Below are positions 3,629 through 61,549 of a stretch of DNA of 64,000 nucleotides, piece after piece. Numbering within the stretch: position 1 is the first letter of the stretch; each line of letters opens with the position of its first letter. Location of the stretch: the IMG/VR virus record IMGVR_UViG_3300031229_000002, positions 7,797 to 71,796 of that record; one strand, given 5' to 3'. The translations under genes were made by a program, and so were the position numbers. This DNA is from a virus. A model generated the notes under the pieces. That model saw nothing but the letters and a program-made list of their open reading frames with translations, made no database searches and was not told where the DNA came from.

Positions 3629-3934
3629 ATGCGCCGCACCACCATCGCCCTGCTCGCCGCTGCCACGCTCGTCGTCGTTGCTGGTGTGGCCGTCGCCGTT
3701 TGGCTGCTCGTGAGGCCCAGCTACGACGACCACGTGAAGGCCTGCCAGAAAGCCCTCGCCGCACAGTTCAAAGTCGGGGGTAAGGGCAAACCGGACGCGT
3801 GCCGGGACGTGGAGGAGGACGACTACTCGGCGATCCTCATGAATCAGATCATGGGCGATGAGGGCTGGCTGGATGAGGACGGCCGGTTCGACAAGGGCAA
3901 GTTTTATGAGGACGCGTTCGATGGGGAGCAGTAG
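3629..3934 (+). CDS. Secreted/membrane-anchored hypothetical protein
   Basis: GGGGGA RBS; MRRTTIALLAAA hydrophobic N-terminus; two Cys. Confidence 0.6.
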   Translation: MRRTTIALLAAATLVVVAGVAVAVWLLVRPSYDDHVKACQKALAAQFKVGGKGKPDACRDVEEDDYSAILMNQIMGDEGWLDEDGRFDKGKFYEDAFDGEQ

Positions 3935-3949
3935 CTGTAGTGCGTGAAG

Positions 3950-3982
3950 AGGCCCCGCTCCGGGATGGTCCGGGCGGGGCCT
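3950..3982. terminator. Hairpin between convergent genes
   Basis: AGGCCCCGCTCCGG...CCGGGCGGGGCCT inverted repeat. Confidence 0.6.
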
Positions 3983-3995
3983 TCGTCATGCGGGG

Positions 3996-4190
3996 TCAGA
4001 TGACCATGGGTTCGGTGGCGAGCAGCTCGCGGCCGCGCTGCTGATACCAGGCGTCGAGCGCTGCGCCGATCACGTCCTGCATCTCTTCGACGACGTCGTC
4101 GGCGTACATCTGCTCGCCGTCCTTGGTTGGTAGATGCTCGGGGCTGTGGACGGTGCAGGCGATTCCGATGTGCCGCAGTTCCTTGCTCAT
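3996..4190 (-). CDS. Hypothetical protein
   Basis: GAGGAG RBS; ATGA overlap with upstream gene. Confidence 0.6.
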   Translation of the reverse strand: MSKELRHIGIACTVHSPEHLPTKDGEQMYADDVVEEMQDVIGAALDAWYQQRGRELLATEPMVI

Positions 4191-7794: not shown

Positions 7795-7801
7795 GCCGCG
7801 C

Positions 7802-13961: not shown

Positions 13962-14389
13962 CCGCCATGGACCTGGGGCTGCTGCTCGTTGTGATGTCGC
14001 TGGCGACCTACCGCCTTACGCGGCTCGTCGTGGCGGACACTTTTCCGCCGGTGGTGTGGTTGCGTGACCGGCTCGCCGGGGGCTGGCGGGATCTGACGGC
14101 GGAGGAGCAGCATCTCCTCTTCGGCGGCGCCCTCCCCGGTGACAAGGCGGTGGAGCTGCGCAAGGCATGGTCCGTGAACCCGGAGGGGGAGCAGCGCTAC
14201 CTGTACCGGTGGAAGCGGTCGCCGTTCTGGCTTGCCGAGTTGCTGTCGTGCCCGTGGTGTGCGAGCGGTTGGGTCGCGCTCGGGGTGACGGGTGGGGTGT
14301 GGGCGGCGGTTGGCCTGCCGGTGCCGCTGCTGGTGTGGCTGGCGACGTGGGCGCTCGGTGCGTTGCTGGCGGCGCAGGAATGGGCGTGA
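13958..14389 (+). CDS. DUF1360-like membrane protein
   Basis: LATYRLTRLVVADT...ELLSCPWCASGWV. Confidence 0.7.
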   Translation: MTAMDLGLLLVVMSLATYRLTRLVVADTFPPVVWLRDRLAGGWRDLTAEEQHLLFGGALPGDKAVELRKAWSVNPEGEQRYLYRWKRSPFWLAELLSCPWCASGWVALGVTGGVWAAVGLPVPLLVWLATWALGALLAAQEWA

Positions 14390-14448
14390 CGTTTCCTGTG
14401 GGATGGTGACGACGAGGGCCGGTTCCCCCCGGGCTCTTGTGGTGGGGT

Positions 14449-14489
14449 GGGGAGCCGTCTGCGTACGGGCGTTCCGCAGGCGGCTCCCC
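14449..14489. terminator. Strong hairpin between convergent genes
   Basis: GGGGAGCCGTCTGCG...CGCAGGCGGCTCCCC, 15-bp stem. Confidence 0.7.
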
Positions 14490-14499
14490 TGGCGTTTGG

Positions 14500-15174
14500 T
14501 CAGTCCGTCTGCGGCTCCCAACGGGTGACCTCGTACCGGCCGAAGCCCTGCGAGCGGGATGCGCCGATGCCCTGCTGTTCGCCGGTGAGCCAGAGCATGG
14601 CCCATTCCTGGTCGGTGAACTTGTGGTCGGCGATGATCGTGAAGTCGAACGACGTCTTGTCGATGATCTCGGTGTACTGGATGCCGGTCTGACCGGTGCG
14701 CGGGTTCTTGGGGAACGACTGGAGGATCCGGGAGGGCTCGGTGACGTCGAGCTGGAGGACATCCTCGACGACCATGATGTGTTCGGCGACGAACCCGAGG
14801 ACGCCCTTGTTGGTGGCACCCCACTTCATCTTCAGCTTTTCGGCTGCTCGCGCGACTCCGGCGGCTTCCTTGATCGCGGCCTTGAGCTGTCGGCCTTCGA
14901 TGTAGAGGCCGTGTTCGTTGCGCTTGAAGCCGTTGAGGTGCTTCAGCTTGTCGACCTGCTCGGCGGCTTCGTCTGCGGTGATGCCGCGTTCGACCATGGT
15001 CTGCGCGACGAGGTCCCGGATCAGGTCGTCCTTGTCGGCGAGTTTGGTTCCGAGCCAGCCTTTGGCGACGTTGGGGTCTGAGGGGACGCCTCCGGCGAGG
15101 TTGTGGGCGGTGATGGTGGCGTTGTAGCGGTGGGGCCATGCGGTGGTGGTGTAGGTGGCGAAGGCGCTGGTCAT
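14500..15174 (-). CDS. Orphan RAMP-superfamily (Cas7/Csm3-like) RNA-binding protein
   Basis: N-terminal strand YNATITAHNLAGG; GLYIEGRQLKAAIKEA (cf. RAMP PxIPGSSLKGxxR); QYTEI; C-terminal Gly-rich loop GIGASRSQGFGRYEV; AGGAG RBS. Confidence 0.8.
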   Translation of the reverse strand: MTSAFATYTTTAWPHRYNATITAHNLAGGVPSDPNVAKGWLGTKLADKDDLIRDLVAQTMVERGITADEAAEQVDKLKHLNGFKRNEHGLYIEGRQLKAAIKEAAGVARAAEKLKMKWGATNKGVLGFVAEHIMVVEDVLQLDVTEPSRILQSFPKNPRTGQTGIQYTEIIDKTSFDFTIIADHKFTDQEWAMLWLTGEQQGIGASRSQGFGRYEVTRWEPQTD

Positions 15175-15199
15175 GGGGTTCTCCTGGTGGTGGTGGCTA

Positions 15200-16125
15200 G
15201 TCGGTGAGGCGGGGGCCGTTCCGGGGATGGCTGGGCTTGTCGCTGCGGGTAGGGCGGAACAGTGGCGCGGGGAGGTGGGTGGGGCCGGTTAGTCGTCGGG
15301 GTCGGGGCGTGCGGGCGGTGGCGACTGGGGTCGTCGGCAGGTGTAGGTGCGGGGTGTGATGTGGCGGGCGGTCTCGGGGCGCGGCGGGTAGTCGGTATGG
15401 GCCGGGGGGACCGGGTGAGGCACGAACTGGGTTGTCGGTGCGGGCGGGGATGTGCGGTGTGGGCTCGACTTGGAAGGTCGGTTCGGGTTGGGAGGGGCTC
15501 GGGTCGGTGTGGCGAGTCGGTACGGGCTGGCGCGGTTGGGCTGTGGTGAGCCGGTCCTGGGCTGGGCTGTCGACGTGGGTCGGGGTGCGCGGCGTGGGTG
15601 GGGTACGTCGGCGGGGGCTGGGAGGGTACGTACGGTGCCGTGACGCGATGGCTGGGGACGAATAGTCGGATAGTGGCGGGCAGAACGGAGTCGCGTCGGG
15701 TCGTGGTGAGAAGTCGGCAGGCAAGGGCGGGGAAGGGCTGAAGAGGGGAGTCGGCGGGAGGTGGGCGGAGAAGCGAGGAACGGGCCAGAGACGGGCCGGG
15801 TAGTCGGCATGGATCGGAAGGGAGGGCATTGCGTGGGACGGGAAGTCGGCTGGGCTCGGGTGGCGAAGGCATGCGAAGTCGGTGGGGAGCGGCAAGAAAT
15901 GCGGCGTATGGGGTGGGGCAGTCGCCGAGGTGTGAAGCGGATTGCTGGGCACTGGGAAGTCGGCGCGGCTTGTGGCGTATTGGGATGCGCCGGGAGGTCG
16001 ACGAGGGAAGGGTGGCGATGGAACGAGACGGGTGGGGATGTCGGAGCGGGATGACCGGAGGAGGGAAGCTATGACGGGGGGAGTCGTCTCGGTGTGGGGC
16101 GCGGTGCATCGGCCAGAACACGAAC
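15200..16125. repeat. Pentamer-phased array of 20 complete units (GTC anchor + n x GNNNN on + strand); putative guide-like ncRNA array, transcribed strand unknown
   Basis: 21 GTCG anchors; spacings 39,53,41,58,43,43,39,53,38,58,48,37,53,42,33,43,38,38,43,43 (15/20 exactly 5n+3); fixed G every 5 nt. Confidence 0.88.
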
Positions 16126-16129
16126 CCGC

Positions 16130-16678
16130 TCACGCAGCAGCAGCCACCGGAGCCTGAGACTTCCCCGTCACCGAGCGGTACATCGTCAGGTACTGCTCCT
16201 CCGTGAACACGTCGCCCACCACCCGGTCACCGAGCTTCTTCGCGACCGCCCGATGAAACGATGCCTCCAACTTCGCCTGCCGCGCCGTCTCGTCATACCG
16301 ACCAGCCACGAACCGGCAATCCTCCGCCGTCATCCGCGCCACCGTCCGCCGCGTGTTCTCCTCGTCCACCACATACTCCGCAGCGAACGGACTCAGCACC
16401 GCAACATCCCCCGAGTCCGCGAACGACCGAGCCGCCTCCGCGAATGCCCGACGCGGCGCCGACACGCGTGCCGCCTGCCGACGACTGTTCGACCGCCGAG
16501 CCACCGCATCCGCCAAGAAGACGGCCGCCTTCACCTCCAACCAGCCCGACAGCAGGTCCGGGTCCTCGGCGCGCAGCTTCTCCACCAGATCGGCGGCGAC
16601 GAGCGGCGCCGTGTAATCCCCCTCCGGGATGGCGTCCTCGATCGCGGCGTTCATGTCGGCGATGTAGTCCCGGCTCAT
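16130..16678 (-). CDS. Hypothetical helical protein, first gene of the RAMP/array cassette
   Basis: GAAGGGAAG RBS before ATG 16678; stop codon abuts the array. Confidence 0.75.
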   Translation of the reverse strand: MSRDYIADMNAAIEDAIPEGDYTAPLVAADLVEKLRAEDPDLLSGWLEVKAAVFLADAVARRSNSRRQAARVSAPRRAFAEAARSFADSGDVAVLSPFAAEYVVDEENTRRTVARMTAEDCRFVAGRYDETARQAKLEASFHRAVAKKLGDRVVGDVFTEEQYLTMYRSVTGKSQAPVAAAA

Positions 16679-16739
16679 CAGCAACTTCCCTTCACCGTGG
16701 CAGGCGTGACGAGTTGAGCGCCTTCAGTTCAAAGCGGCG

Positions 16740-16858
16740 GCGCGAAATCAGAATGCATTAACCGCACCGATTTGGCAAAAAGCAATTAGGTTTACCGGCC
16801 CACCTAATTCAATTCCGAATTCGCCCCGGAATGATCTTTACGAGCCCGCGCCTACCGT
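16740..16858. promoter_or_regulatory. AT-rich divergent control region: inverted repeat AATTAGGT-N10-ACCTAATT (16784-16809) and late-promoter-like motif (16826-16858)
   Basis: Markedly AT-rich; perfect 8-bp inverted repeat; CCGGAATGATC...TACCGT. Confidence 0.65.
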
Positions 16859-16895
16859 GCCCCGCGACAGCCAACCGCCCTAAGTGGAGGCACTC

Positions 16896-19800
16896 GTGGC
16901 CTGGTATCACGCCTTCAGCCGACGGCGTCCGCTGCCCACACCCCTGCCCCTCCCAACCGAAGAACCGAAGACACTCACCGCCTCAGCCGCACCCGTCACC
17001 AGCCCCCGCACCGAACTCCTCCGCACCCCCGACACCTGGCAAAACGAAGCCTGGGAGTACTACCAAAACCTCGGCGAATTCCGGTACGCCGCCGACTGGG
17101 AAGCCAACGTCCTCTCACGCATCCGCCTCTACGCCGCCAAAATCGAACCCGGCACCGACGAACCCGTACGCGCCAACGCCGGAACCGCCGTCGACCTCAT
17201 GACCAACTTCGCCGGAGGCGTCGGCGGCCAAGCCCAAATCATGGCCGGACTCGCCACCCAGCTGACTGTCCCCGGCGAGGGATACCTCATCGTCGAGAAC
17301 GTCAACGGCATCGAACAATGGTCCGTCCGCAGCATCGACGAAGTCCGCGCCGCCCGCGGCAAGTACGAAGTCCTCGACGAAAACAGCCCCCGCACCGGCG
17401 ACCAGTGGCGCCCCCTCGCCCCCGAATCCATGGCGCCGATCCGGGTGTGGCGGCCGAACAAAAGGTTCCACCACATCGCCGACAGCCCCGCCCGCGCCGC
17501 CAGGTCGACGATGCGCGAGTTGGAGCTCGTCAACCGGCACATCACCGCCCAGTACCTCAGCCGGTTGGCGTCGGCCGGAGTCGTCGTCTTCCCCGACGAG
17601 ATCACCTTCCCCGTACGCGAGGAGTTCGCAGACGCCCCCGATCCGTTCATGGCCGAGTGGATCGAGAACGCGAAGACCGCGATCAGCACCCCCGGCACGG
17701 CCGCCGCCGTGGTGCCGATGCCGATCCGGGTACCGGGCGAGTACGTCGACAAGATCGCGCACATTGATTTCACGCTGCGCTCCGACGACAAGATCATCGA
17801 GAAGCGGGACTCAGCGATCAAACGCCTCGCCTCCCAACTCAACGTCCCACCAGAAGTGTTGCTCGGAATGGGTGAGCTAAACCACTGGTGTACGTTGGAC
17901 AACGTGCGAATCATGACGCGGGCAGGGTGGAAGACGTACGACCAACTCACCGTGGGCGAGGAGGTGCTGACGCTCAACCACGACACCGGACTCTCCGAGT
18001 GGCAACCACTGCTCGCAGTGAACACCTGGGACGTGGTCGACGAACCGATGGTGACCATCACCGGGCGACGTCACACCTCGACCACCACGCTCAACCACCG
18101 CTGGCCGATCCTGTCCGGCTTGGCGCGTAAGCGAGGCAGGGACTGGACCACGACCGCCGAGCTGATGCAGGCGGCCAAGGCGGCAGGCGACGACGCCCAG
18201 CGACACGAGTACCTCGTTCTGGCCGCGCCGAGTGCCGATCTCCCCACAGAGCCCAAGTACCAGGACGCCCTAGTCGAGTTGGTCGCCTGGTACTTCACCG
18301 AAGGCAACCGAGGAGTCCGTGAGGGGCGGAATACGCCGCAGGTCATCATCCACCAGTCGCACATAGTGAACCCCGACAACTGCGCACGTATCCGCCGCGC
18401 CCTGACTGCCCTCTTTGGGCCAGCGAGCGAAAGCCTCGACAAAGGAGGCCGATACGCGACACCGGAGTCCGTGGCGCGCCGTGCAGAAGCACGGCGCCTG
18501 CGGGCCGAAAACCCGAAGATGCCAAACGTGGAGATCGCCCGTCGCCTCGGCGTCTCGGGAGCCATGGTGGCCAAGTACCTCGCCAAGGAAGCGAAGCTGC
18601 GTGACTCAGCGCCGCGCTGGCGTGAGCGAGTCAAGCGCAGCGGTCAGCTGACCATCTTCATCCTCAACTCGGCTGCTGCGGAGGTCATTCTCGAACACGC
18701 TCCGGGACGTGTCGTCACGCCGGAGTTCGTTCAGCGGCTCACCGCTGCGCAGCTTGAGTTGTTCATTGATACCGCCGTCCGGGGCGATGGGCACGTGACG
18801 GCGAAGGATTCCTCAACCTTCGGCCAGAAGGATCCGGCGATGTGCGATGCATTTGAGCTCGCGTGCATCCTGTCGGGACGCTCGGTCAACCGATACGAAG
18901 TAACCGGCTTGGGCGCATCTGCCAACGGGCCTCGTCTCAAGACTCAGCACGTCGTTTCGTCCACGAACAGGTCATTGACGTTCGCCCCGCGTGGCCGATC
19001 CTTCGAGGAGTTCACCCACACCGGAACCATCTGGTGCCCGACCACCCCCAACCGATCGTGGCTGGCCGAAGATAACGGGCACGTCTTCTTCACTGGCAAC
19101 TCCGCATGGATCGCCGACGAGACGAGCCTGAAGGTCAACACGGCCCCCGACGCTGAACTCGTCTCTCAGGCGCTGACGACCGGCTACCTCCAGCCGCGCC
19201 TCAAAGCCTCCGGCGTGGAGGACTGGGCAACCTGGGTCGTCTGGTACGACATGAGCGAACTGACCCTGCGCCCCGACCGCAGCGACGACGCAGTCCAGTT
19301 GTACGACCGGCTGGAGATCAACGGCGCCGCACTCCGTCGCGAGACCGGCTTTAACGAGGACGACCGGCCCGAAGGCGACGAGCTGAAGGAGCAGGCCCTC
19401 AAGGTCATCATCAAGACGCTGCCCTCCGGCGCCGGATCTGCCCTGTCTCAACTCGTCGGCGAACGCGTCGAGATCACCCCCGTCGCAGCCCAGACACCCG
19501 CCGCGGCAGCAGCACAGGACGACGCCCCGCAGGCAGAGGAACGCGCCGCACCCGCCACCCGCGACGAACCGCCACCGACAGACGAAGCAGCCCGGCAGGC
19601 GGCGGCCGAAGCACGCGCGGAGCGGATGGCCCAACAGGCGAAAGCGTTGCACGCAGTCCGGTTCGCTGCTGGCCGTCCGCCGGACCTGCTGCACCCGGCG
19701 CTGTGTTCCTCGCACGCCTACAGCTGCCCGTTCACGCACGCGGCAGCCAAGCTGCAGACGCTACCGAGACCCGGAACGTCGGGCGTGTACGAGGCACGGC

Positions 19801-19910
19801 TGAGCGCGTTCGGGCAGCTCACGATCGGCCGGCTGTCCCCGCATCTGGACACCACGGGTTTTCTGACCACCGTCTCCCCTCGGAGTAGCAATGGGTTCGC
19901 GAAGCGGTAA
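16896..19910 (+). CDS. Portal protein containing an intein
   Basis: WQNEAWEYY, RVWRP, RLASQLNVPPEVLLG, NHW/SAW; GGAGG RBS before GTG 16896; position after TerL. Confidence 0.85.
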   Translation: MAWYHAFSRRRPLPTPLPLPTEEPKTLTASAAPVTSPRTELLRTPDTWQNEAWEYYQNLGEFRYAADWEANVLSRIRLYAAKIEPGTDEPVRANAGTAVDLMTNFAGGVGGQAQIMAGLATQLTVPGEGYLIVENVNGIEQWSVRSIDEVRAARGKYEVLDENSPRTGDQWRPLAPESMAPIRVWRPNKRFHHIADSPARAARSTMRELELVNRHITAQYLSRLASAGVVVFPDEITFPVREEFADAPDPFMAEWIENAKTAISTPGTAAAVVPMPIRVPGEYVDKIAHIDFTLRSDDKIIEKRDSAIKRLASQLNVPPEVLLGMGELNHWCTLDNVRIMTRAGWKTYDQLTVGEEVLTLNHDTGLSEWQPLLAVNTWDVVDEPMVTITGRRHTSTTTLNHRWPILSGLARKRGRDWTTTAELMQAAKAAGDDAQRHEYLVLAAPSADLPTEPKYQDALVELVAWYFTEGNRGVREGRNTPQVIIHQSHIVNPDNCARIRRALTALFGPASESLDKGGRYATPESVARRAEARRLRAENPKMPNVEIARRLGVSGAMVAKYLAKEAKLRDSAPRWRERVKRSGQLTIFILNSAAAEVILEHAPGRVVTPEFVQRLTAAQLELFIDTAVRGDGHVTAKDSSTFGQKDPAMCDAFELACILSGRSVNRYEVTGLGASANGPRLKTQHVVSSTNRSLTFAPRGRSFEEFTHTGTIWCPTTPNRSWLAEDNGHVFFTGNSAWIADETSLKVNTAPDAELVSQALTTGYLQPRLKASGVEDWATWVVWYDMSELTLRPDRSDDAVQLYDRLEINGAALRRETGFNEDDRPEGDELKEQALKVIIKTLPSGAGSALSQLVGERVEITPVAAQTPAAAAAQDDAPQAEERAAPATRDEPPPTDEAARQAAAEARAERMAQQAKALHAVRFAAGRPPDLLHPALCSSHAYSCPFTHAAAKLQTLPRPGTSGVYEARLSAFGQLTIGRLSPHLDTTGFLTTVSPRSSNGFAKR
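17889..19100 (+). mobile_element. Intein (404 aa) with LAGLIDADG homing endonuclease, in portal
   Basis: Starts CTLDNVRIMTRAGW, ends IWCPTT...FFTGN then Ser; LVAWYFTEG and FIDTAVRGDG motifs; removal restores NHW-SAW. Confidence 0.9.
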
Positions 19911-26648: not shown

Positions 26649-28079
26649 ATGGCGCTTGCCCAGTACAGCGAGCTGTTCTGGTTCCCCTCCGGGGAGTTGG
26701 CGGCGAACGTGACCGCGAGAGTGTTCCGACACGCCTCGAACACGCTCGCCACGCTGTACGCCGACGCGGCCGGCACGACACCGCTCGCGAATCCGATGTC
26801 AACATCGGGGACCGGGCGGCTGACGTTCTACGTCGAAGAAGGCCGCTACTGGGTTCACATCGACTCCGAGACGTTCGAGATCGGGGTGGGTGCGGCAGCA
26901 CAGGCAGCGACCCAGGGCGACATCACCACCGCGGTCGCCGCCCACAGCGCTGCGGTTGATCCGCACGCCGACCGCGCTTATACCGACACGCAGATCGCTG
27001 CACTGTCGGCGCTGACCCAGCTCAAAGTAAAGACCGCCGACGAAGCCCGCACAGCCGACACCACCGTCAGCGACGACCTGCACCTGTTCGCCTCCCTGGA
27101 AGCGAACAGCGTCTACCGCTTCACCAGCATGCTGCTGTTCGACGGGCCCGAAGCCGCCGACGCCACCATCAGCTTCACCGCCCCATCCGGAGCGTCGGGC
27201 GGCTGGTCGCCCGTCGCCGGAACCCTCGGCACCACCACCCCCGACGGGGCTGCCCAGCTGAAGATGGCCGGCCGCCAGTTCGGCTCCGAGGTCGACGTGG
27301 GTGTGATGGCGTCGTCAGCGTCGCTGGCCGGACTGATGGTGCTGCCGCACGGCATCGTCGTCACCGGCGCCACAGCCGGGACGCTGCGCCTGCAGTGGGC
27401 GCAAGCCTCCAGCAACATCACCGCAGTGAACCTGAAAGCCGGGTCCACGCTGGAAGTCGTCAAAGTCTCCGGGGCCGGGCCGTCCGCGTCCGGCATCAAC
27501 CTCGACTTCCCCGGCAACTACCCGACGGATCAGGGCCTCCTCGCCTGGACGTACGATCCGGACATGGCCGGGCACGTCACCGCCCAGTCGTCCGGCTCCC
27601 CGGCCGGTTCGGATGTGCGGGGCATCATCACCCTCACGAAAATCCAAATCCGCAAGTCGATCACCTGGTCACAGATTTGGTTCGGGCTGTCCGGCATCGA
27701 CACCGGGGCCAGCCTCAGCGACTGCTACCTCGGCGTGTACAACTCGGCTGGTACCCGCCTCGGTACCACCGCCGACATTGCCGCCGACCTCATGACCGGC
27801 GCCATCGCTAAACCCGTGGACCTGGCCGCCACGTTCACCGCCGCGCCGGGCGAATACTTCATCGCGATGCTACTGAACGGCACCTGGACCACGAACGGCC
27901 TGCACTTCAAAGCGTCCGGCGCGGGAATCTCGGTGAACGCCAACCTGACCGCGCCGCAGCTGCGCTACTCGAACATGCTCACCGGCCAAACGTCCCTGCC
28001 CGCATCGCTGGACCTCACCCAGCAGACCACTACCCGCATCAACACCGGCTGGGCTTCCCAGTGGTACGGGATCAGCTGA
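26649..28079 (+). CDS. Virion structural protein (fibre/decoration-like)
   Basis: LANP...GRLTFY Ig-like N-terminus; DPHADRAY linker; LRLQWAQ beta-rich domains. Confidence 0.55.
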   Translation: MALAQYSELFWFPSGELAANVTARVFRHASNTLATLYADAAGTTPLANPMSTSGTGRLTFYVEEGRYWVHIDSETFEIGVGAAAQAATQGDITTAVAAHSAAVDPHADRAYTDTQIAALSALTQLKVKTADEARTADTTVSDDLHLFASLEANSVYRFTSMLLFDGPEAADATISFTAPSGASGGWSPVAGTLGTTTPDGAAQLKMAGRQFGSEVDVGVMASSASLAGLMVLPHGIVVTGATAGTLRLQWAQASSNITAVNLKAGSTLEVVKVSGAGPSASGINLDFPGNYPTDQGLLAWTYDPDMAGHVTAQSSGSPAGSDVRGIITLTKIQIRKSITWSQIWFGLSGIDTGASLSDCYLGVYNSAGTRLGTTADIAADLMTGAIAKPVDLAATFTAAPGEYFIAMLLNGTWTTNGLHFKASGAGISVNANLTAPQLRYSNMLTGQTSLPASLDLTQQTTTRINTGWASQWYGIS

Positions 28080-28092
28080 GAAGGGGCCCAGC

Positions 28093-28926
28093 ATGCCGGT
28101 CATCAACCCCATCCTGAGTACACCGTCCGGAACGGGCGGAATCAGCGGGCCGTGCGCGGACTGGCCCGTCACCTGGACCTGCGAGTTGGACACGCTGAAC
28201 CCTGCCGTCACCGGCATCGCCGTGAGCATGGCGACGGAAACGCTGTGGGCTTTGACGGGCATGCGGTTCGGGACGTGCCAGGTCACGCTGCGGCCGTGCG
28301 CCCGCGAGTGCCAGACCGGTTCGTTCTACGACGACTTCGGGCCGCCGTGGGCGTCGGGCTCCTATCCGCAGCCCGCGCTGGTCGGGGGGCTTTGGTACAA
28401 CCTCACCTGCGGGTCGTGTACGGGTGACTGCTCGTGCACTGAGGTGTCGGAGGTGCGGCTTCCGGCTCCGGTGCACACGATCGTTGAGGTGAAGATCGAC
28501 GGTACGCCGATGGTGTCGGGCGCGTACCGCGTCGACAATAACCGGCTGCTGGTGCGTACGGATGGCGGGCGGTGGCCGCGCTGCAACGATCTAAACCTGG
28601 ACGACACGGAGGTGGGTACGTGGTCGGTGACGGCAACGTACGGGGAGTCGTTGCCGGAGGGCGCCTCTTTGGCTGTGGGCCAGTTGGCGTGTGAGATCGC
28701 GAAGGCTGCGGCGGGCGGGGACTGCAAGCTGCCGGCCGGGTTGCAGCAGTTGGTGCGGCAGGGCGTGACCATCAGCTATCCCGATGTCGGGGAGTTGTTC
28801 CGGCAGGGCCGCACAGGGCTGTATCTGGTGGACATGTTCGTCAGCACATGGAATCCGTACGGGCTGCGGCAACGCTCACGGGTGTATTCGGTGGACCGGC
28901 CGACGGTGCGGAGAGCGGGGACCTGA
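28093..28926 (+). CDS. Head-to-tail adaptor
   Basis: LWALTGMRFG.C..TLRPC, WPRCNDL, LACE, RQGVT, TGLYLVD. Confidence 0.7.
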   Translation: MPVINPILSTPSGTGGISGPCADWPVTWTCELDTLNPAVTGIAVSMATETLWALTGMRFGTCQVTLRPCARECQTGSFYDDFGPPWASGSYPQPALVGGLWYNLTCGSCTGDCSCTEVSEVRLPAPVHTIVEVKIDGTPMVSGAYRVDNNRLLVRTDGGRWPRCNDLNLDDTEVGTWSVTATYGESLPEGASLAVGQLACEIAKAAAGGDCKLPAGLQQLVRQGVTISYPDVGELFRQGRTGLYLVDMFVSTWNPYGLRQRSRVYSVDRPTVRRAGT

Positions 28927-28928
28927 AC

Positions 28929-29432
28929 ATGTCGATGATCTCCGGCGAGTTGAAGTGGTACACCGTCGCCGAACGTCTCCGCGCCGCGATCCACGCCGAC
29001 CTCACCGTCAAGCCTGACCGCTCTGGCGTCATCCCCGGAGCCATCGCCTGGGACGCCTGCGACTGCGGCATGCTCGCCGTGTCCGTCGCCCAGGTGTACC
29101 CGTCGGAGGACTTCCCCGACCCGCAGACCGTCAAGGTAGGCCCGTGCGACGCCCCATGGGAAGTTGCCGAACTCGTCGTGCAGATCGTCCGCTGCGCCCC
29201 CAACCCCGACGGGCAAGAGCTGGCCCCCACGGTAACCGCGCTCGACGCTTCCGCCCGCGAGGTTGCCCGCGACGCGTACGAGACCCTGCGCGCGGTGTCT
29301 GTCGCGCTCTGCCAGATGGACACCGACCGCGAGATCTCCGACTTCCTCGTCCGCCCCCAGACCGCACAAGGCCCCGAGGGCGGATGCGTCGGCTCCGAAC
29401 TGCGCGCGCTCGTCGCCCTCGGAAGGAACTGA
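28929..29432 (+). CDS. Neck/tail-terminator-like protein
   Basis: Position; WDACDCG, VRCAP, GPEGGCVG. Confidence 0.55.
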   Translation: MSMISGELKWYTVAERLRAAIHADLTVKPDRSGVIPGAIAWDACDCGMLAVSVAQVYPSEDFPDPQTVKVGPCDAPWEVAELVVQIVRCAPNPDGQELAPTVTALDASAREVARDAYETLRAVSVALCQMDTDREISDFLVRPQTAQGPEGGCVGSELRALVALGRN

Positions 29433-30609: not shown

Positions 30610-33600
30610 GCTGATCGGCACTGCGACGATCCGCGTCGACATGAACACCGCCGACGCGGTCCGCAACATCCGCCGCATGGTCAACCAGGCCGACGGCCCA
30701 CTGCGGAATTTGCAGCGACGCATCGGTCTCGTACGCGCCGATCTCGCGTCACTGCGCGGCGCCAGCATCAGTGTCACCGTCGATGACGGGACCGGGCCAG
30801 GAGCCGCCAGGGTCCGCGCCGCTGTACGCGACCTCCAACAGCTCGGCCCCATCCGTATCAGCGCCCGCATCGACACGGACACAGCCGGCACCACCGCGGC
30901 CACGGCGGCGCTGCGAGCCTTGCGGGACGAGGCAGCCGACACCACCCGCGCGCTGCGCGGCCTGGCCGCGCAGGCCCTCGCCGCTGCGGCCGCACTGCGA
31001 CTGCTCGGCACCCAAGCCCGCAGCCTGCGCGGCGACATGGACGATCTCGACGGTGTCATCCGCCGCGTCAGGGACGGCCTCAACAACCTCGGAGGCGGCT
31101 TCGGCGATGCGGGTGGCGCGGTGGACAAGCTGCGTTCCGCCGCGCTACTGCTGGCCCCGGCGCTCCTTCCGATTGCGGCGCAGGCCATCCATATTCTTCC
31201 CCTGGCCGCGAACTTTGGTGCGGCCGCCGTGGCCGTGGGCGTATTCGGTGCGGCCATCGCAGGACAGGTCGTGGCGATCAAGGATGTGGCGGAGGCGGAG
31301 AAGAAGGCCGCCGACGCAGTCAAGACCCACGGCGCCAGCTCGGCGGAGGCCGCCAAGGCACAGGACGCCTACCGGGCGGCGCTCTCCGCACTGCCCCCAG
31401 CCACCCGGACTGCGGCGGCGGCGTTCAGTGTGCTCAGTGACCAGTACCGGGAGTGGTCGGACAGTCTCGCCGACAACACGATGCCGGTGGCGACGAAAGC
31501 GTTCGCCGCGTTCGGTGCAGTCTTCCCGAAGCTCACTCCGCTGGTTCAGGGCACGTCGCAGCAGCTGAACCGGTTTGTGACGATCGCTGCGGGCGGCGTT
31601 CAATCCGCTGGCTTCGACCGGTTTATGCAGTCGTTCGCGGAGTTCGCGACGGGCGCCCTGTCGAAGGCCAATGATGCGCTGATCCGGTTCACGCGCACCC
31701 TGGACACGGGGAAGATCAGCGGTGGCGTGGCCGAGTTCATGGAGTACGCGCGCGCTAACGGGCCGCTGGTGCGGGACGTGCTGTCGAATGTGGCGCAGGC
31801 GCTGGGCAACATCCTCGAAGGTGCAGCGAACGTCGGGCCTGGCCTGCTGGTGGTGGTGAACGCTTTGGCCGGGATTGCGGCCGCGGTGCCGCCGGGTGTG
31901 ATCACGGCGATGCTGCAGTTGGCGATCGCGTTGAAGGCGGTCCGGCTTGCGGCCGTGGCAATGGCTGCGTCTTCGACTGGTCTGGCCGCGTTCGGTGCGG
32001 CGATCACCGCGATGCGGGTGGCGGCGGCGGGCGCGACGGGTGTGCTGCCTCGGCTGGCGGCGGCGATCGGTGTGATGTCGCGTGCCACGAAGATTGCCCT
32101 GGCGGGAACCGGGATCGGCCTGTTGGTGATCGCGCTCACCGAGTTGTCGCAGATCGGGAGGCAGGCACCCCCGGACGTCGACAAGCTGACGGGGTCGCTG
32201 GCCCGGCTCGGTAAGTCCGGGAAGGTCGCGGGGGAGGCCGCGAGGGCGTTCGGCAGCGACCTTGGCGGCCTGAACGACAAGGTGCAGGCGCTGACCGACC
32301 CGGGCACCGCCGACAAGGTGCAGCAGTTCCTTGTCGGCTGGACCGGCTGGGATTCCACGCCGGTGAAGGAGGCGAAGGAGAACCTCGACTCCGTTGACAA
32401 AGCGCTCGCGAATCTCGTCAAGGACGGGAAGGCGGACCTTGCTGCTGCTGCGTTGAAGCGGCTGACGGCGGAGTACGGCAAGGGCGGCCGGGATACCAAG
32501 GAGTTCACGAGCCGTCTCGACGATTACAAGGCGTCGTTGGAGGACGCGAAGTTCGAGCAGCAGTTGGCTGCTGATGCGATGGGTTTGTTCGGGCAGCAGG
32601 CGCAGGCCACGTCGGCGAAGCTCGCCGAGCAGAAGCAGAGCACGGACGGGCTGCGGCAGGCGATCCATGCACTGAACGAGGCGACTCTCATGGCGCGCGG
32701 CGGGATCCGCGGTATGGAGGCGGCCATCGACGCTGCCGCGGAGGCGGCGCGGGAGAACGGCCGCACGCTGGACGAGAACACAGAGAAGGGCCGCGCGAAC
32801 AACCAGGCCTTGGACAACCTCGCTTCATCGACGATGAAGGCCGCGGAGGCCGCAAGGGAGAACGGCGCCTCGTGGTCTACCGTCAACGGGATTTACGACC
32901 GCGGGCGCGGGAAGCTCATCGAGTCCGCAATACAGATGGGCCTCACACGCAAAGAGGCCAAAGCCCTCGCCGATCAGATCCTGAAGACGCCGAACAAGAC
33001 GGCGCTGCTGAAAGCCGACATCACCGACTGGAAAACGAAGATCTCCGCTGCGGAGAAGCAACTCAAGACCGCCAAGGGCGACAAGAAAGCGAAACTGACC
33101 GCCGACATCGCCGACTGGAGAGTCAAGGTCGCGCAGGCCGAGCAGCAACTGGTGAAGGCGAAGGGCAACAAGCGGGCGAAGCTGACCGCCGATATCGACG
33201 TGTGGAAGGCGAAGGTTGCGCAGGCCGAGCAGCAGCTGAAGACCGCCAAGGGTGACAAGAAAGCCAAGCTGACGGCGAACATCGACGACTGGCAGTCGAA
33301 GATCGCCGAGGCGTTGAGGGCGATCAACAACCTGCCTAGGAGCAGGTCGACGAAGCTGACTGCGCACTACGTCAACATCACCGAGAACCGCACGATCTAC
33401 ACCGGCCAGGGCGGCCGCGGCCCCAACGCAGCCACCGGCGGCCTGTACACGGGCAGCGGGTTCAAGTACCGGGGGAAGGGCTACGCCAACGGCGGCATGG
33501 TGGAGGGCCCGGGCACGGGCACCTCGGACAGTGTGTTCGCGCCGTGGCTGAGCAAGAACGAGTTCGTCGTCAACGCCCGCCGCACCCGCCAGCACCTGCC

Positions 33601-37500: not shown

Positions 37501-37889
37501 CGGAACGCAGGCCGACGGTGCAGTTGCGGATCGTGTCGTCCGACATGGCGCACTGGTTGCAGATCCTCACCCGGACGCTGTCGGACCGCATCACCATCCG
37601 CAACGGCGAACTCGGGCTGGACGCGGATTTCCATATCGAGCGGATCGAGCAGACCCTCACCCGCATGATGGTCGACGAGGACACCTGCGAAGACCCGGTG
37701 CACTACGCGGTCTTCGGCTGCGAGCGCACCCTCGGGGACCCGACCGAGAACCCGTTCACCTTCGATGTGGCCGGGCTCGGCTTCGACGACGGCGTGTTCG
37801 ACCCGACCGCGGCCGACAATCCGGAGACGGTGTTCATCTTCGACCACGCCACGCAGGGCCAGTTCAACACGGGCCAGTTCGGTACCTGA
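34581..37889 (+). CDS. Minor tail protein with three N-terminal 186-aa repeats
   Basis: Repeats start at ~34605/35163/35721 (DxF....VD..KWP...WLRVRE..G.L.WETS.DG..W); baseplate-hub-like C-terminus. Confidence 0.8.
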   Translation: MALIGTLRDTFNDNVVDPTKWPDSYGTHSETGGRARVACDTGFNAYATDEAWTLEASEAKCQLFPPAAGGAATEAWAQLLITSTTAGTDAIIEVNAATGDLGMAVRVGFFDPGFTSLPYDPVAHAWVRIREDSGDVHWETSADGITWTTRRTETSPAWVADVDLQVQLIAHRDGGVDDFAEFDNFNVNAFAALADNFNDNTVDTAKWPDSFGTFSETGGRARVACDTGFSGYASAAIYTLEGSAASTQVFPPAAGGATVDAWAQLLVTSATPGTDAVMKVNAATGDLAMELRTGFFDPGAVLLPYDPAAHAWLRVREAGGDLLWDTSPDGVTWTTRRTAAAPTWVSDTDLQVQLVAHRDSGTDDFAEFDNFNVAPFAQLTDDFTSTTVDTEKWPANYNEGGGGLPDQPDGRARVPCDTGFAAYASAAAYTLDESYAGVHAFPPPSAGMSEAYAQLLILSGVVGTQIVFEIDAATNLLLMTVHVDFTDEGGATLPYDAAEHAWLRVRETAGTLYWETSPDGRDWTARHSDAAPAWVSDNNLQVQLLAHCSPAVTGGGPTGEFAEFDDFNITPELPDGYTVAVDWNSDGDFDDPNDDVTADVLRRGAVTFQYGRDQARQLSPPMVGSLSFGLCNADRIYSPENPDSPIVNDIAPAAPVKVEVVTGDTLYPLIRGRIDDFEVHPDRDNRTADISALDDLSLLRGTTISTELYEAQRTGTLIAVILDAIGWTAPRDLDLGGTFVPWWWAENKDAFTALTELLESEGPPSIAYVAPDGTFVFRDRHHRLLRDASITSQAAFAAREVTCDSPAVTGFSYLPPFEYVHGWRDIINSVVFAVEERRPEAGLSVVWESDDTISLALGQSIQVDVQASDPFRDVQDLRDGTDIVYTGSGVPLILLSRRSGQALTVTITAAGGTLNITHLQVRARPVPVARTVQVAADDSVSIARHSRRSYPETPPWVSANDAVAITQLLLAHYAERRPTVQLRIVSSDMAHWLQILTRTLSDRITIRNGELGLDADFHIERIEQTLTRMMVDEDTCEDPVHYAVFGCERTLGDPTENPFTFDVAGLGFDDGVFDPTAADNPETVFIFDHATQGQFNTGQFGT

Positions 37890-37934
37890 CCACTCCCGGA
37901 ATGATCTTCGGCGGGCGGGTTCTACCGTCACCGC

Positions 37935-59731: not shown

Positions 59732-61549
59732 GTGGACAACGTCCGCCACATGCCGCGCGACCAGGCGGACCAGGACGGCCTCACACGCGCCAGCCCTCAC
59801 GACGCCGAGGCCGAAGAACTGGTCATCGGCGCCGTCATGCACTCCGCGCAGGCCTACAACGAGTGCGCCCTCGTCATCACCCGCGACGACTTCTACCGGC
59901 CCGCCCACCAACTCATCTGGGACGTCGTCGCCGGGCTCGTCGCCACGAACACCCCGCCCCACCCCGTACTCGTCCGCGCCGAGATCGAGAAACAGAACCA
60001 GCTTCACCGCGTCGACAACGGCAACCTCATCATCCGTCTGGGCTCCGAAACCCTGCCCGCCACCATGGCGCAGAGCTTCGCCCATCAAGTCGCCGAGGTC
60101 GCCCGCGCCCGCCGTTACGACGCTCACTCCACCGCGCTGAAAGCCGCCATCGACCGCAAAGCCGACGGCGATGAACTCGCCGCGCTGGTCGCCGACTTCC
60201 AGCAGGCCGAGCAACTCCGCGAGAACACCGGCCGCGGCCCCGCCCACCTCGTCGCCAGCCTGCTCAACTGGGACGCCTTCTTCACCACCGACTTCGGTGC
60301 CATCCAGCTGCTTCCCGGCAAGCTCATGGGCCCTGGTCAGCAGATCACCCTCGTCGGCGACGGCAAGGCCGGCAAGTCCCTGTTCACGCAGGAGTGGATG
60401 TGGCGCATGGCCACCGGCCAGGGCTTCCTCGGCGACAAACCACAGGACCCGGTGCCGGTGCTCTACCTCGATGCGGAGAACGGGCAGGAACAGGTACAGG
60501 AGCGCTTCCTGTCCTTCGGTGCCGGGCCGCGCGCCATGGGCGATCTCAAGTACGCCTCGTTCCCGCCCATCCGCCCCCTCGACACCGCGGGCGGCGGCGC
60601 CGACCTCCTCGCCCTGGCGAAAGCCATCGGCGCCGAACTCGTCGTCATCGACACCGTGTCCCGCTTCATCTCCGGCCCGGAGAACGACGCCGACACGTGG
60701 CTCAACCTCTACCGGCACACCCTCCTGCCGATGAAGCGGGACCGCATCGCGTCCGTACGCCTCGACCACTTCGGCAAGGACAAGGACCGCGGAGGCCGCG
60801 GCTCCTCCGCGAAGACACAGGACGTCGACCACGTGTGGGAACTGTCCGCGCAGGGCGGCGGCGCCCTCGTACTCAAGCGCACCCACACCCGTACCGGCAT
60901 CGGCCCCGACAACTTCTCCATCGTCCGCCAGGCCCGCCGCGACGGCGACAACTGGGCCCTCGGCGGCACCCGTCACGTCCTCATGACGTACGAGAACGAA
61001 CCGGTTAACGGCATGGCCGCCATACCCGGAACCGACGAGTACATCATCGCCGCGCTGAACCGCGCCGGGGTGCCGCTCGATGCCGGGAACCGGGTCGTGA
61101 AAGCCAAGCTCGCCGACCTCCAGATCCCGGCCGGATCCGACAAGGTCAGCCGCGTCGTCAAGATCCGCCAAAACCAGGCCAAAGCAGACGACGCCAACGT
61201 TCCCCCGGGACGTTCCCCCGACCCGTTCCCGGAGACGTTCCCCGGGAACGTTCCCCGGAACGCATCACAGGAGCATAACGCCGCAGGTCAAACGTTCCCC
61301 GGTAACGCGGAGGGAACGTCAGGAACGCCCCCCGTTCCCCCCGTCCCTCCCTCACATGTGAGGGACGGGGAGGGAACACCCGCACCACAGGACTCAGACG
61401 AAGCCCTCTGCACCGTCTGCGAGACACCCCTCACCGGCTACCGACTCGACCGCGGCTACGAGACGCATCTCGGCTGCGACCCCGAAACCGGCAGCCACCC
61501 CGACCGCCCCACCCACGGCCACGAAGACGCCCACCACGGCGCCGCATAG
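59732..61549 (+). CDS. Replicative helicase/initiator: DnaB N-terminal domain + RecA-like AAA_25 ATPase
   Basis: PHDAEAEELVIG...DDFYRPAHQLIW; GDGKAGKS; LYLDAEN; VVIDT; LDHFGK; RGSSAK. Confidence 0.85.
   Translation: MDNVRHMPRDQADQDGLTRASPHDAEAEELVIGAVMHSAQAYNECALVITRDDFYRPAHQLIWDVVAGLVATNTPPHPVLVRAEIEKQNQLHRVDNGNLIIRLGSETLPATMAQSFAHQVAEVARARRYDAHSTALKAAIDRKADGDELAALVADFQQAEQLRENTGRGPAHLVASLLNWDAFFTTDFGAIQLLPGKLMGPGQQITLVGDGKAGKSLFTQEWMWRMATGQGFLGDKPQDPVPVLYLDAENGQEQVQERFLSFGAGPRAMGDLKYASFPPIRPLDTAGGGADLLALAKAIGAELVVIDTVSRFISGPENDADTWLNLYRHTLLPMKRDRIASVRLDHFGKDKDRGGRGSSAKTQDVDHVWELSAQGGGALVLKRTHTRTGIGPDNFSIVRQARRDGDNWALGGTRHVLMTYENEPVNGMAAIPGTDEYIIAALNRAGVPLDAGNRVVKAKLADLQIPAGSDKVSRVVKIRQNQAKADDANVPPGRSPDPFPETFPGNVPRNASQEHNAAGQTFPGNAEGTSGTPPVPPVPPSHVRDGEGTPAPQDSDEALCTVCETPLTGYRLDRGYETHLGCDPETGSHPDRPTHGHEDAHHGAA
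61196..61345. repeat. CGTTCCC direct/inverted repeats (putative replication-origin iterons)
   Basis: About 7 CGTTCCC copies plus inverted GGAACG copies in 150 bp. Confidence 0.65.

Follow-up and report, generated by a model that had tools for sequence, protein, structure and literature searches.

What could be the function of a small two-gene cassette that runs antisense to the terminase and portal genes of a phage and encloses almost a kilobase of non-coding DNA organized in steps of 5 nt? The cassette occurs in IMG/VR virus record IMGVR_UViG_3300031229_000002, within a stretch of 64,000 nt (positions 7,797 to 71,796 of that record; hereafter the window, whose coordinates we use). We conclude that the locus is probably a Viral Interference Programmable Repeat (VIPR) system of an actinobacterial phage, with guides read from the C-rich strand that is also the sense strand of its genes. 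VIPR is a kind of system already known from preprints of 2026, to which the locus adds a member of a divergent clade. The grammar of the array and its conservation, the predicted RAMP fold of the 224-aa protein, its profile homology to the Vipr protein of Escherichia phage SUSP1, the in-frame target matches under a 1-nt-skip rule and the turnover of the array were computed here. The parts of the cassette are the following:

14500..15174, minus strand: vipr, encoding the predicted 224-aa Vipr-family RAMP (Cas7-like), from the open reading frame (ORF) call, fold model and profile homology
15175..16129, minus strand: putative non-coding guide (vrRNA-type) array, 955 nt, with a 43-nt leader followed by ~20 CGAC-punctuated pentamer units
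16087..16129, minus strand: leader without periodicity, separating the upstream gene's stop codon from the first unit
15611..15668, minus strand: candidate guide unit for helicase motif VI, 58 nt with 11 variable pairs, from 1-nt-skip decoding
15337..15394, minus strand: candidate guide unit for DUF932/TIGR03299, 58 nt with 11 variable pairs, with matches in Streptomyces genomes
16130..16684, minus strand: vap-like accessory gene, 184 aa from a TTG start or 182 aa from the ATG at 16678

An earlier interpretation, made from the letters of the window (the sequence-only reading), had described a minus-strand cassette composed of a 182-aa gene, an array, a 224-aa gene and a hairpin. This layout was confirmed with small corrections to the coordinates, among them the 182/184-aa length of the upstream gene; the array is non-coding as it had proposed, and measures 955 nt rather than ~930 bp.

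The Vipr homologue and the grammar of its array

VIPR has been described as the combination of Vipr, a minimal RAMP, with a vap accessory gene and vrRNAs composed of YNNGG repeats (bioRxiv 10.64898/2026.04.26.720920; statements about the preprints refer to their main texts). The sequence-only reading had likened the locus to such systems, and they do exist (bioRxiv 10.64898/2026.04.26.720920 and 10.64898/2026.04.26.720927). The SUSP1 record (KT454805.2) contains a 195-aa gene at 28474-29061 and a 146-aa gene at 28031-28471, both on the minus strand, with flanking YNNGG runs.

The AlphaFold2 model of the 224-aa protein, based on an alignment of 63 sequences, has a predicted local distance difference test (pLDDT) score of 92.4. 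When the model was compared with the PDB using Foldseek, the top matches were Cas7-type subunits from complexes of type VII, type III (Csm/Cmr) and Cas7-11/gRAMP (165 matches at E ≤ 1e-3, the best at E 1.1e-8; TM ~0.45-0.55). The predicted structure supports a RAMP fold, here of the Cas7/Csm3 type, and so agrees with the RAMP nature that had been proposed from sequence motifs. No model in Pfam, PHROG or NCBIfam matches the protein, including the CRISPR RAMP profiles of Pfam and NCBIfam, and phmmer against PDB sequences returned nothing. Comparison of profiles was more informative: hhalign of the 63-sequence family with a 37-sequence SUSP1 Vipr family gave Prob 94.9 % and E 4.5e-8 over 126 columns, versus merely Prob 25 % and E 7.7e-4 against the single SUSP1 sequence. 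The aligned region extends from helix-1 to the G-loop and leaves the N-terminal strand unaligned. Judged by these profiles, the 224-aa protein is homologous to SUSP1 Vipr. Its family is large: one library yielded 1514 homologues at E ≤ 1e-3, and a second one 542 clusters at 50 % identity. The named members are from Streptomyces, Streptacidiphilus and Actinomadura, and every one of them is annotated as hypothetical.

The adjoining array is biased in composition (the minus strand has 52 % C and 18 % G; plus-strand GC skew ~+0.5) and phased. Its autocorrelation is 0.41 at lag 5 and 0.40 at lag 10 versus ~0.33 at other lags, and there is no 3-nt periodicity (lag 3 = 0.338, the background level). 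A scan of the whole contig (71,796 bp) in 300-nt windows placed the seven most 5-periodic windows within 15205-15905, the best of them ~5 standard deviations over the contig mean. The 5-nt phasing perceived by the sequence-only reading is thus borne out by the lag-5 signal, and it is unique in the 71.8-kb contig. Global Fourier analysis of the array showed no period-5 peak, because the register resets at every unit.

The resets coincide with a short punctuation motif. CGAC occurs at 29 sites versus 7.6 ± 2.7 in 500 shuffles, and CCGAC at 20 versus 4.1 ± 1.9 in as many, so the GAC delimiters that had been noted earlier are well above expectation. Units of 28-58 nt abut one another, with CGAC as their sole invariable element, and the unit length is 5n+3 in 14/21 units of at least 23 nt. 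Counted from CGAC, the in-phase positions of the minus strand hold N, C 56 %, C 63 %, C 92 % and N in turn. Among regular units no shorter than 33 nt, of which there are 13, the fourth in-phase position is C in 123/125 pentamers, a count that takes in the last pentamer of each unit, which overlaps the next CGAC by two letters. Each unit junction shifts the frame by -2.

This grammar is not the canonical GGY/NN consensus. The gene strand reads N-c-c-C-N and the opposite strand G-g-g-N-N with a purine-rich third position, and there are no YNNGG runs of at least 3 units on the plus strand of 15150-16160, the sole strand scanned for the motif. The invariable structured 3' tail of type II arrays is also absent, since the units abut and an Rfam search of 14300-17000 found no family. 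These results count against the canonical type and not against the VIPR class, as the main texts of the preprints allow related or non-canonical cores. At its two ends, the array is bounded by the leader and by the ribosome-binding site of vipr, right up to which it extends. The window and three related loci (L001, L004 and L005) share a conserved GC-rich leader motif of the form GGCCGAYRCACCGCGCCYCRCACCG, which does not occur in a fourth (L003); it could be a processing or assembly signal.

Array turnover and decoded targets

The sequence-only reading had suggested that the flanks of homologues be checked for 5-nt periodicity, and periodic arrays do adjoin the gene in relatives. In all eight viral loci examined (51-93 % protein identity, comprising six distinct arrays because L005 equals L006 and L007 equals L008), the homologue has immediately upstream a 5-periodic tract whose gene strand is rich in C. 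A tract of this kind is present in all 10 of the 12 genome loci that have at least 54 % identity. These arrays also have in common the punctuation by CGAC, a unit length of 5n+3 and the in-phase C. No 5-periodic tract was detected, at the threshold used, within 3 kb of the homologues of an Actinomycetes metagenome-assembled genome (MAG) and an Acidimicrobiaceae MAG (L020 and L021; 27 % identity).

The content of the arrays behaves differently from their grammar. In the closest relative, L001, the vipr DNA is 92 % identical and the array aligns only over its first ~215 nt and last ~30 nt; remoter relatives have at most single array units in common. The array therefore turns over much faster than its flanking genes, as a store of guides would. 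The sequence-only reading had supposed a divergent type on account of the C-rich co-oriented strand and the GAC delimiters. Comparison now supports this, as both features are conserved across the clade, although the identity of the transcribed strand is something that we infer from sequence.

Two observations on individual relatives may be recorded here. The unit at 15845-15892 (minus strand) is common to positions 2534-2580 of L011, a Streptomyces prophage, over 48 nt at 89.6 % identity, in an array that is otherwise unrelated. In L018, from a Nanopelagicales MAG, the periodic tract (1351-2400) lies 700-1600 nt upstream of the vipr homologue and does not adjoin it, and a second periodic window (~3901-4100) lies downstream of the homologue, a different layout.

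The accessory gene travels with the array. A homologue is found upstream of the array in 7/7 viral loci that hold upstream sequence, and the family comprises 119 proteins, with relatives typically of 182 aa. The AlphaFold2 model of the protein is mostly helical (pLDDT 83) and has no Foldseek match in the PDB at E ≤ 1e-3. No model in Pfam, PHROG or NCBIfam matches it, and it shows no similarity to SUSP1 vap1. Any role in the system that we ascribe to this protein is presumed from its position.

Under the published rule, the NN letters of each repeat pair with DNA and one target nucleotide is skipped between successive pairs (bioRxiv 10.64898/2026.04.26.720920). We decoded units accordingly, taking the two letters between successive fixed triplets and joining them with one free base. 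The decoded double-stranded target is identical whichever strand is the RNA. Searches of sequence collections covered the five long units with 20-22 specified letters; units with 12-16 letters were left out because chance matches would dominate. Two of the five, the helicase and DUF932 units, have matches that follow this 1-nt-skip rule.

The unit at 15611-15668 spells YVQMVGRVLRP, which is motif VI of superfamily 2 (SF2) helicases. It has one exact 22/22 match in viral contigs and 10 in metagenome contigs, and 11/11 of these are in frame, such that the wobble position is the one skipped. Among the matches the wobble bases vary, four flanking peptide contexts occur and contig GC ranges from 0.39 to 0.71; two of the contigs (L022 and L030) are apparently the same one. 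Skips of 0, 2 and 3 on the same contig reach only 14/22. ResIII/DEAD and Helicase_C domains are found in the target ORF, which adjoins a Zn-ribbon/Toprim primase and has relatives in 1106 phage records. A unit from the array of another relative (L010) also points to a helicase gene: 14/14 of its specified letters match in L033, ~65 nt upstream and in the opposite orientation, again in frame.

The unit at 15337-15394 matches 12/401 Streptomyces-genus genomes at no more than 2 mismatches (7 with one, 5 with two, 0 exact), versus 0/401 for the same pattern read backwards. It gave 0 matches in viral contigs and 0 in metagenome contigs. All 10/10 loci inspected are in frame and encode the peptide YA[AG]ER[AT]IT[GD]YL. 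The target is a 'phage/plasmid-like' protein (Pfam DUF932, E 1.4e-58; TIGR03299, E 1.5e-99). One of the genomes (G001) is that of the L011 prophage mentioned above; its DUF932 site, on contig C32 at 37875-37906, matches the guide from the window at 21/22 letters, and the VIPR prophage of the same clade is carried on a separate contig, C5.

The proposal of the sequence-only reading that variable bases specify targets thus finds support in matches to mobile-element genes that are in frame under the published rule. The natural VIPR targets reported in the main text of the preprint lie in satellites and prophages, and there too the wobble base is the one skipped (10.64898/2026.04.26.720920). A guide confined to codon positions 1-2 of a conserved motif is what one would predict if escape through silent mutations is to be prevented. 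When the phage's own contig was searched for self-targets, the best match had 16/20 specified letters under any skip rule, and none was above 80 %.

Guide strand and alternative explanations

Which strand would be the guide RNA? The base contacts in SUSP1 provide a frame of reference: there, G1 of the repeat is contacted by H17 and D177, G2 by R138 and W178, and Y3 sits in an R179 pocket that excludes purines (10.64898/2026.04.26.720927). The equivalent of D177 is Ala in 55/63 sequences of the present family and that of W178 is Ser or Thr in 38/63, whereas R179 is retained in 63/63. Since the gene strand is C-rich in 18/18 close relatives examined and the G-contacting residues are replaced, a C-anchored guide code in this actinophage clade is likely on sequence grounds. 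Retention of R179 with loss of D177 and W178 fits an invariant C at the position equivalent to Y3, preceded by two relaxed positions.

The polarity of known systems agrees with a sense-strand guide. The YNNGG runs of SUSP1 are on the same strand as its genes, and in six high-GC loci with a SUSP1-type Vipr (G-loop GLGDWRPRFG) GGY/NN runs occur on the gene strand in 5/6 and on the other strand in 0/6. A SUSP1-type Vipr query (P0355) was not found in 121 Streptomyces-genus genomes. Together, we moderately favour the C-rich sense strand over the G-rich strand as the RNA.

A fuller version of this proposal, to which we would give about even chances, is that the clade reads NNC/NN (usually ccC/NN) in place of GGY, with guides that open with GAC and overlap by two letters. 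Each transcript would hold ~20 tail-less guides, separated by the -2 shift without processing signals, and the code would be matched in the protein by the change of D177 to Ala and of W178 to Ser or Thr with the Arg kept.

If so, the system could work as follows. A minus-strand transcript of the cassette would start upstream of the 182-aa gene and extend to the hairpin after vipr, and the 955-nt array would supply ~20 short guides. Vipr protomers would polymerize along the RNA, one per pentamer, as the sequence-only reading had proposed. Each of them would grip the fixed C together with the two preceding C-biased bases, and would present the two variable bases. The variable dinucleotides would pair with double-stranded target DNA, with every third target base skipped, and the guide would thereby read codon positions 1-2 of a protein motif and ignore the wobble base. 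CGAC at the start of a unit would shift the register by -2 (unit length 5n+3), so that a filament could not continue into the next guide. Binding would silence replication or transfer genes of rival mobile elements, of which the SF2 helicase and the DUF932/TIGR03299 protein may be two. Assembly of the ribonucleoprotein and silencing are modelled here, by analogy, on the experiments with SUSP1 described in the preprints.

Several points weigh against this account. Both the production of an array RNA and its C-rich polarity are inferred. The hhalign alignment behind the residue argument omits the N-terminal strand, which carries H17. The opposite strand reads G(92 %)-g-g-NN and so resembles the 'NNNGG' consensus given in the preprint for some types, and the cassette of the window is antisense to structural genes, such that read-through from TerL would yield the G-rich strand. 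As for the targets, the helicase matches are mutually homologous, and 11/11 does not stand for eleven independent events. The DUF932 unit is never matched perfectly (best 21/22). The remaining 3/5 long units gave no credible target: unit 15806 had 0 matches in viral contigs and 0/391 in Streptomyces-genus genomes at no more than 1 mismatch, with 1 match for the control, and unit 15572 had 0 matches in viral contigs. Unit 15295-15243 had one exact 20/20 match, in a low-GC contig (L023) with the skipped base on codon position 2, which looks like chance; the chance expectation is ~0.1-0.2 per 20-letter pattern, a rough estimate for an assumed collection size. Finally, when 97 units from 17 arrays were compared with 288 kb of loci and the seeding matches were removed, skip 1 was not enriched (11 matches, versus 17, 5 and 13 for skips 0, 2 and 3).

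The alternative that survives best, which we regard as possible and rather unlikely, is a VIPR system whose guide RNA is the G-rich plus strand, antisense to vipr, with the array inverted relative to the gene in this clade. Its units would have the form (G-N-N-N-N)n with GTCG at the end, a consensus of the 'NNNGG/NNNNG' type listed for some published types. The first base of the plus-strand pentamer is indeed G in ~92 % and the next in 63 %, and the consensus forms in the main text of the preprint are G-based (GGY, NNNGG, YNNNG and NNNNG), among seven VIPR types that include staggered arrays with overlapping vrRNAs (10.64898/2026.04.26.720920). The cassette also lies antisense between TerL and the portal gene in L001 as in the window, where late-operon read-through would give the G-rich strand, and the target matches do not discriminate, as the same double-stranded DNA is specified by either strand. 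However, the G motif is on the gene strand in SUSP1 and in the 5/6 high-GC loci described above. Neighbouring genes are co-directional with vipr in L004, L007, L010 and L011, where nothing would drive an antisense transcript, and the array directly adjoins the ribosome-binding site of vipr. The residues argue in the same direction: D177, a G1 contact, is Ala here even though G1 would be the invariant base (the H17 equivalent is outside the alignment), and G, a purine, would predominate at the third position, for which the SUSP1 protein has a pocket that excludes purines and whose Arg is retained here.

An alternative that applies to either strand is that the tract is a degenerate or DNA-level element without guide RNA, such as a decayed array, a set of protein-binding sites or a compositional relic, and that the target matches are coincidental. 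The three long units without a credible target, the exact match that resembles chance and the lack of skip-1 enrichment among weak matches count in its favour. We nevertheless consider it very improbable. The grammar is kept in relatives down to 51 % protein identity while the content of the units turns over, the in-phase C at 123/125 positions of regular units shows selection on register, and the array always adjoins a Vipr homologue. Furthermore, a 22-letter pattern has 11/11 matches in one frame of one motif, and a second pattern has 12 matches versus 0 in its control.

That the tract is instead a gene for a proline-rich protein is hardly credible, and we rejected it: a 320-aa open frame (15171-16133, minus strand) does span the tract, but stop codons are rare anyway on a strand with 52 % C, the period is 5 nt rather than 3, the frame shifts by -2 at every unit boundary, the 320-aa frame fails the criterion of GC content at third codon positions (GC3) that identifies the real genes of the contig, and in a Streptomyces genome the accessory gene and vipr carry adjacent NCBI locus tags, which suggests that no gene was called between them.

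Comparison with known systems and genomic context

The VIPR reading with C-rich sense-strand guides can be compared with the type II system of SUSP1, which consists of Vipr, vap1 and four vrRNAs. Both have a small RAMP with a single RNA recognition motif (RRM), with helix-1 and G-loop motifs that align. Both are phage-borne two-gene loci in which no cas genes or CRISPR repeats were seen (of the cas genes, Cas1 was the one searched for here), and both are flanked by an array whose 5-nt repeats each contain two variable letters. In-frame 1-nt-skip matches with the wobble base skipped are likewise described in the main text of the SUSP1 preprint, and in both systems the targets are genes of mobile elements, with sites in both orientations. 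The locus is unlike SUSP1 in reading ccC/NN on the gene strand instead of GGY/NN, in the replacement of G-contacting residues (D177 by Ala, W178 by Ser or Thr) and in an accessory protein that does not resemble vap1. It also differs in having ~20 guides in a single array upstream of vipr, between both genes, with abutting units of 28-58 nt that lack a 3' tail or pseudoknot, CGAC being their delimiter and the register shifting by -2.

Some of these differences have counterparts elsewhere in the preprints. The staggered VIPR arrays also have tail-less, abutting units with overlapping ends, by 1 nt in the published figure legend (fig. S18) and by 2 nt here. Vipr-like folds have been reported beside non-canonical 5-mers (GAC/NN, CAC/NN, WGT/NN and TGH/NN) in 21 clusters (10.64898/2026.10.21.760802), and the locus resembles these in having a fixed trinucleotide other than GGY beside such a fold. 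C is the last letter of the published GAC and CAC cores, and in the present array also of the GAC at unit starts and of the internal ccC/CAC pentamers. Neither a ccC/NN (or NNC/NN) core nor the 5n+3 rule is named in the preprint text compared here; the clade and its repeat may already be catalogued in their figures or supplements.

The best structural matches of the protein are to Cas7 of class 1 CRISPR systems (type VII Cas7, Csm3/Cmr4 and Cas7-11 domains), with which it would share an RRM core and a glycine-rich loop. Class 1 Cas7 polymerizes on guide RNA with a fixed step of 6, and the step proposed here is 5 nt. Unlike class 1 CRISPR, the locus has no repeat-spacer array, the contig has no Cas1, and targets appear to be read through a gapped code. 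We rejected an orphan class 1 Cas7 system as an explanation, given the lack of Cas1 and of CRISPR-like repeats and a period of 5 nt rather than ~60-70 nt.

VIPR is a very recently described class that has been proposed as the ancestor of CRISPR RAMPs, and the locus is a well-resolved actinophage example of it. Its array grammar is clear (CGAC start, 5n+3 length and one invariant letter per pentamer), and two natural targets could be decoded, namely helicase motif VI and the DUF932/TIGR03299 protein of Streptomyces genomes. Should the RNA prove to be the C-rich strand, the clade would show that such a protein-RNA code can change from purine to pyrimidine anchors, and VIPR would have a second form of its code. 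Such recoding, if true, bears on the evolution of effectors and on their engineering.

The locus is minimal and phage-borne, with two genes flanking the array and both TerL and a portal gene in the virus record. The cassette is antisense amid three plus-strand genes that the sequence-only reading had named correctly: TerL (Terminase_6N/6C domains), a DUF1360 gene and the portal gene (phrog_776, E 1.7e-114). Two further features delimit it:

16685..16883, no strand assigned: lower-GC divergent intergenic region, presumed promoter region, separating the cassette (minus strand) from the portal gene (plus strand)
14449..14489, minus strand: strong hairpin, presumed terminator, downstream of vipr and between convergent genes

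Of the AT-rich promoter region that had been proposed, the compositional part stands, with a dip in GC to 0.59 (16650-16949) versus ~0.68 nearby. A sigma-70 consensus scan of 14200-17100 gave 0 promoter-like sites, and the promoter role of 16685-16883 is presumed solely from the arrangement of the genes. Similarly, the hairpin at 14489-14449 is strong, with an RNA fold of -39.5 kcal/mol (z -4.3; 1/200 shuffles folds equally well). It is presumed to be the terminator that had been noted earlier; it has no T-run, and the terminator scan made no call there. The earlier statement that cas genes and CRISPR repeats are absent holds for Cas1 and for the repeats: a search of the contig found no Cas1 (the control was positive in 7/14 genomes; other cas families were not searched), and Tandem Repeats Finder (TRF) returned five rows for the window, none of them CRISPR-like. 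The cassette gave a single short match, within vipr, when compared with phage records by blastn.

Outside the cassette, the portal ORF (16884-19910, plus strand; 1008 aa) contains an insertion of ~404 aa (residues ~336-739) that is absent from its L001 homologue, in which the two matching halves are contiguous. The insertion starts with Cys and ends ...GN followed by Ser; it is intein-like in appearance and has no Pfam domain at E ≤ 1e-3. Tandem repeats in the window include an 87-nt repeat with 3.4 copies at 33007-33306 and a 13-nt repeat with 4.9 copies at 61196-61259, the latter also listed by TRF at a 25-nt period.

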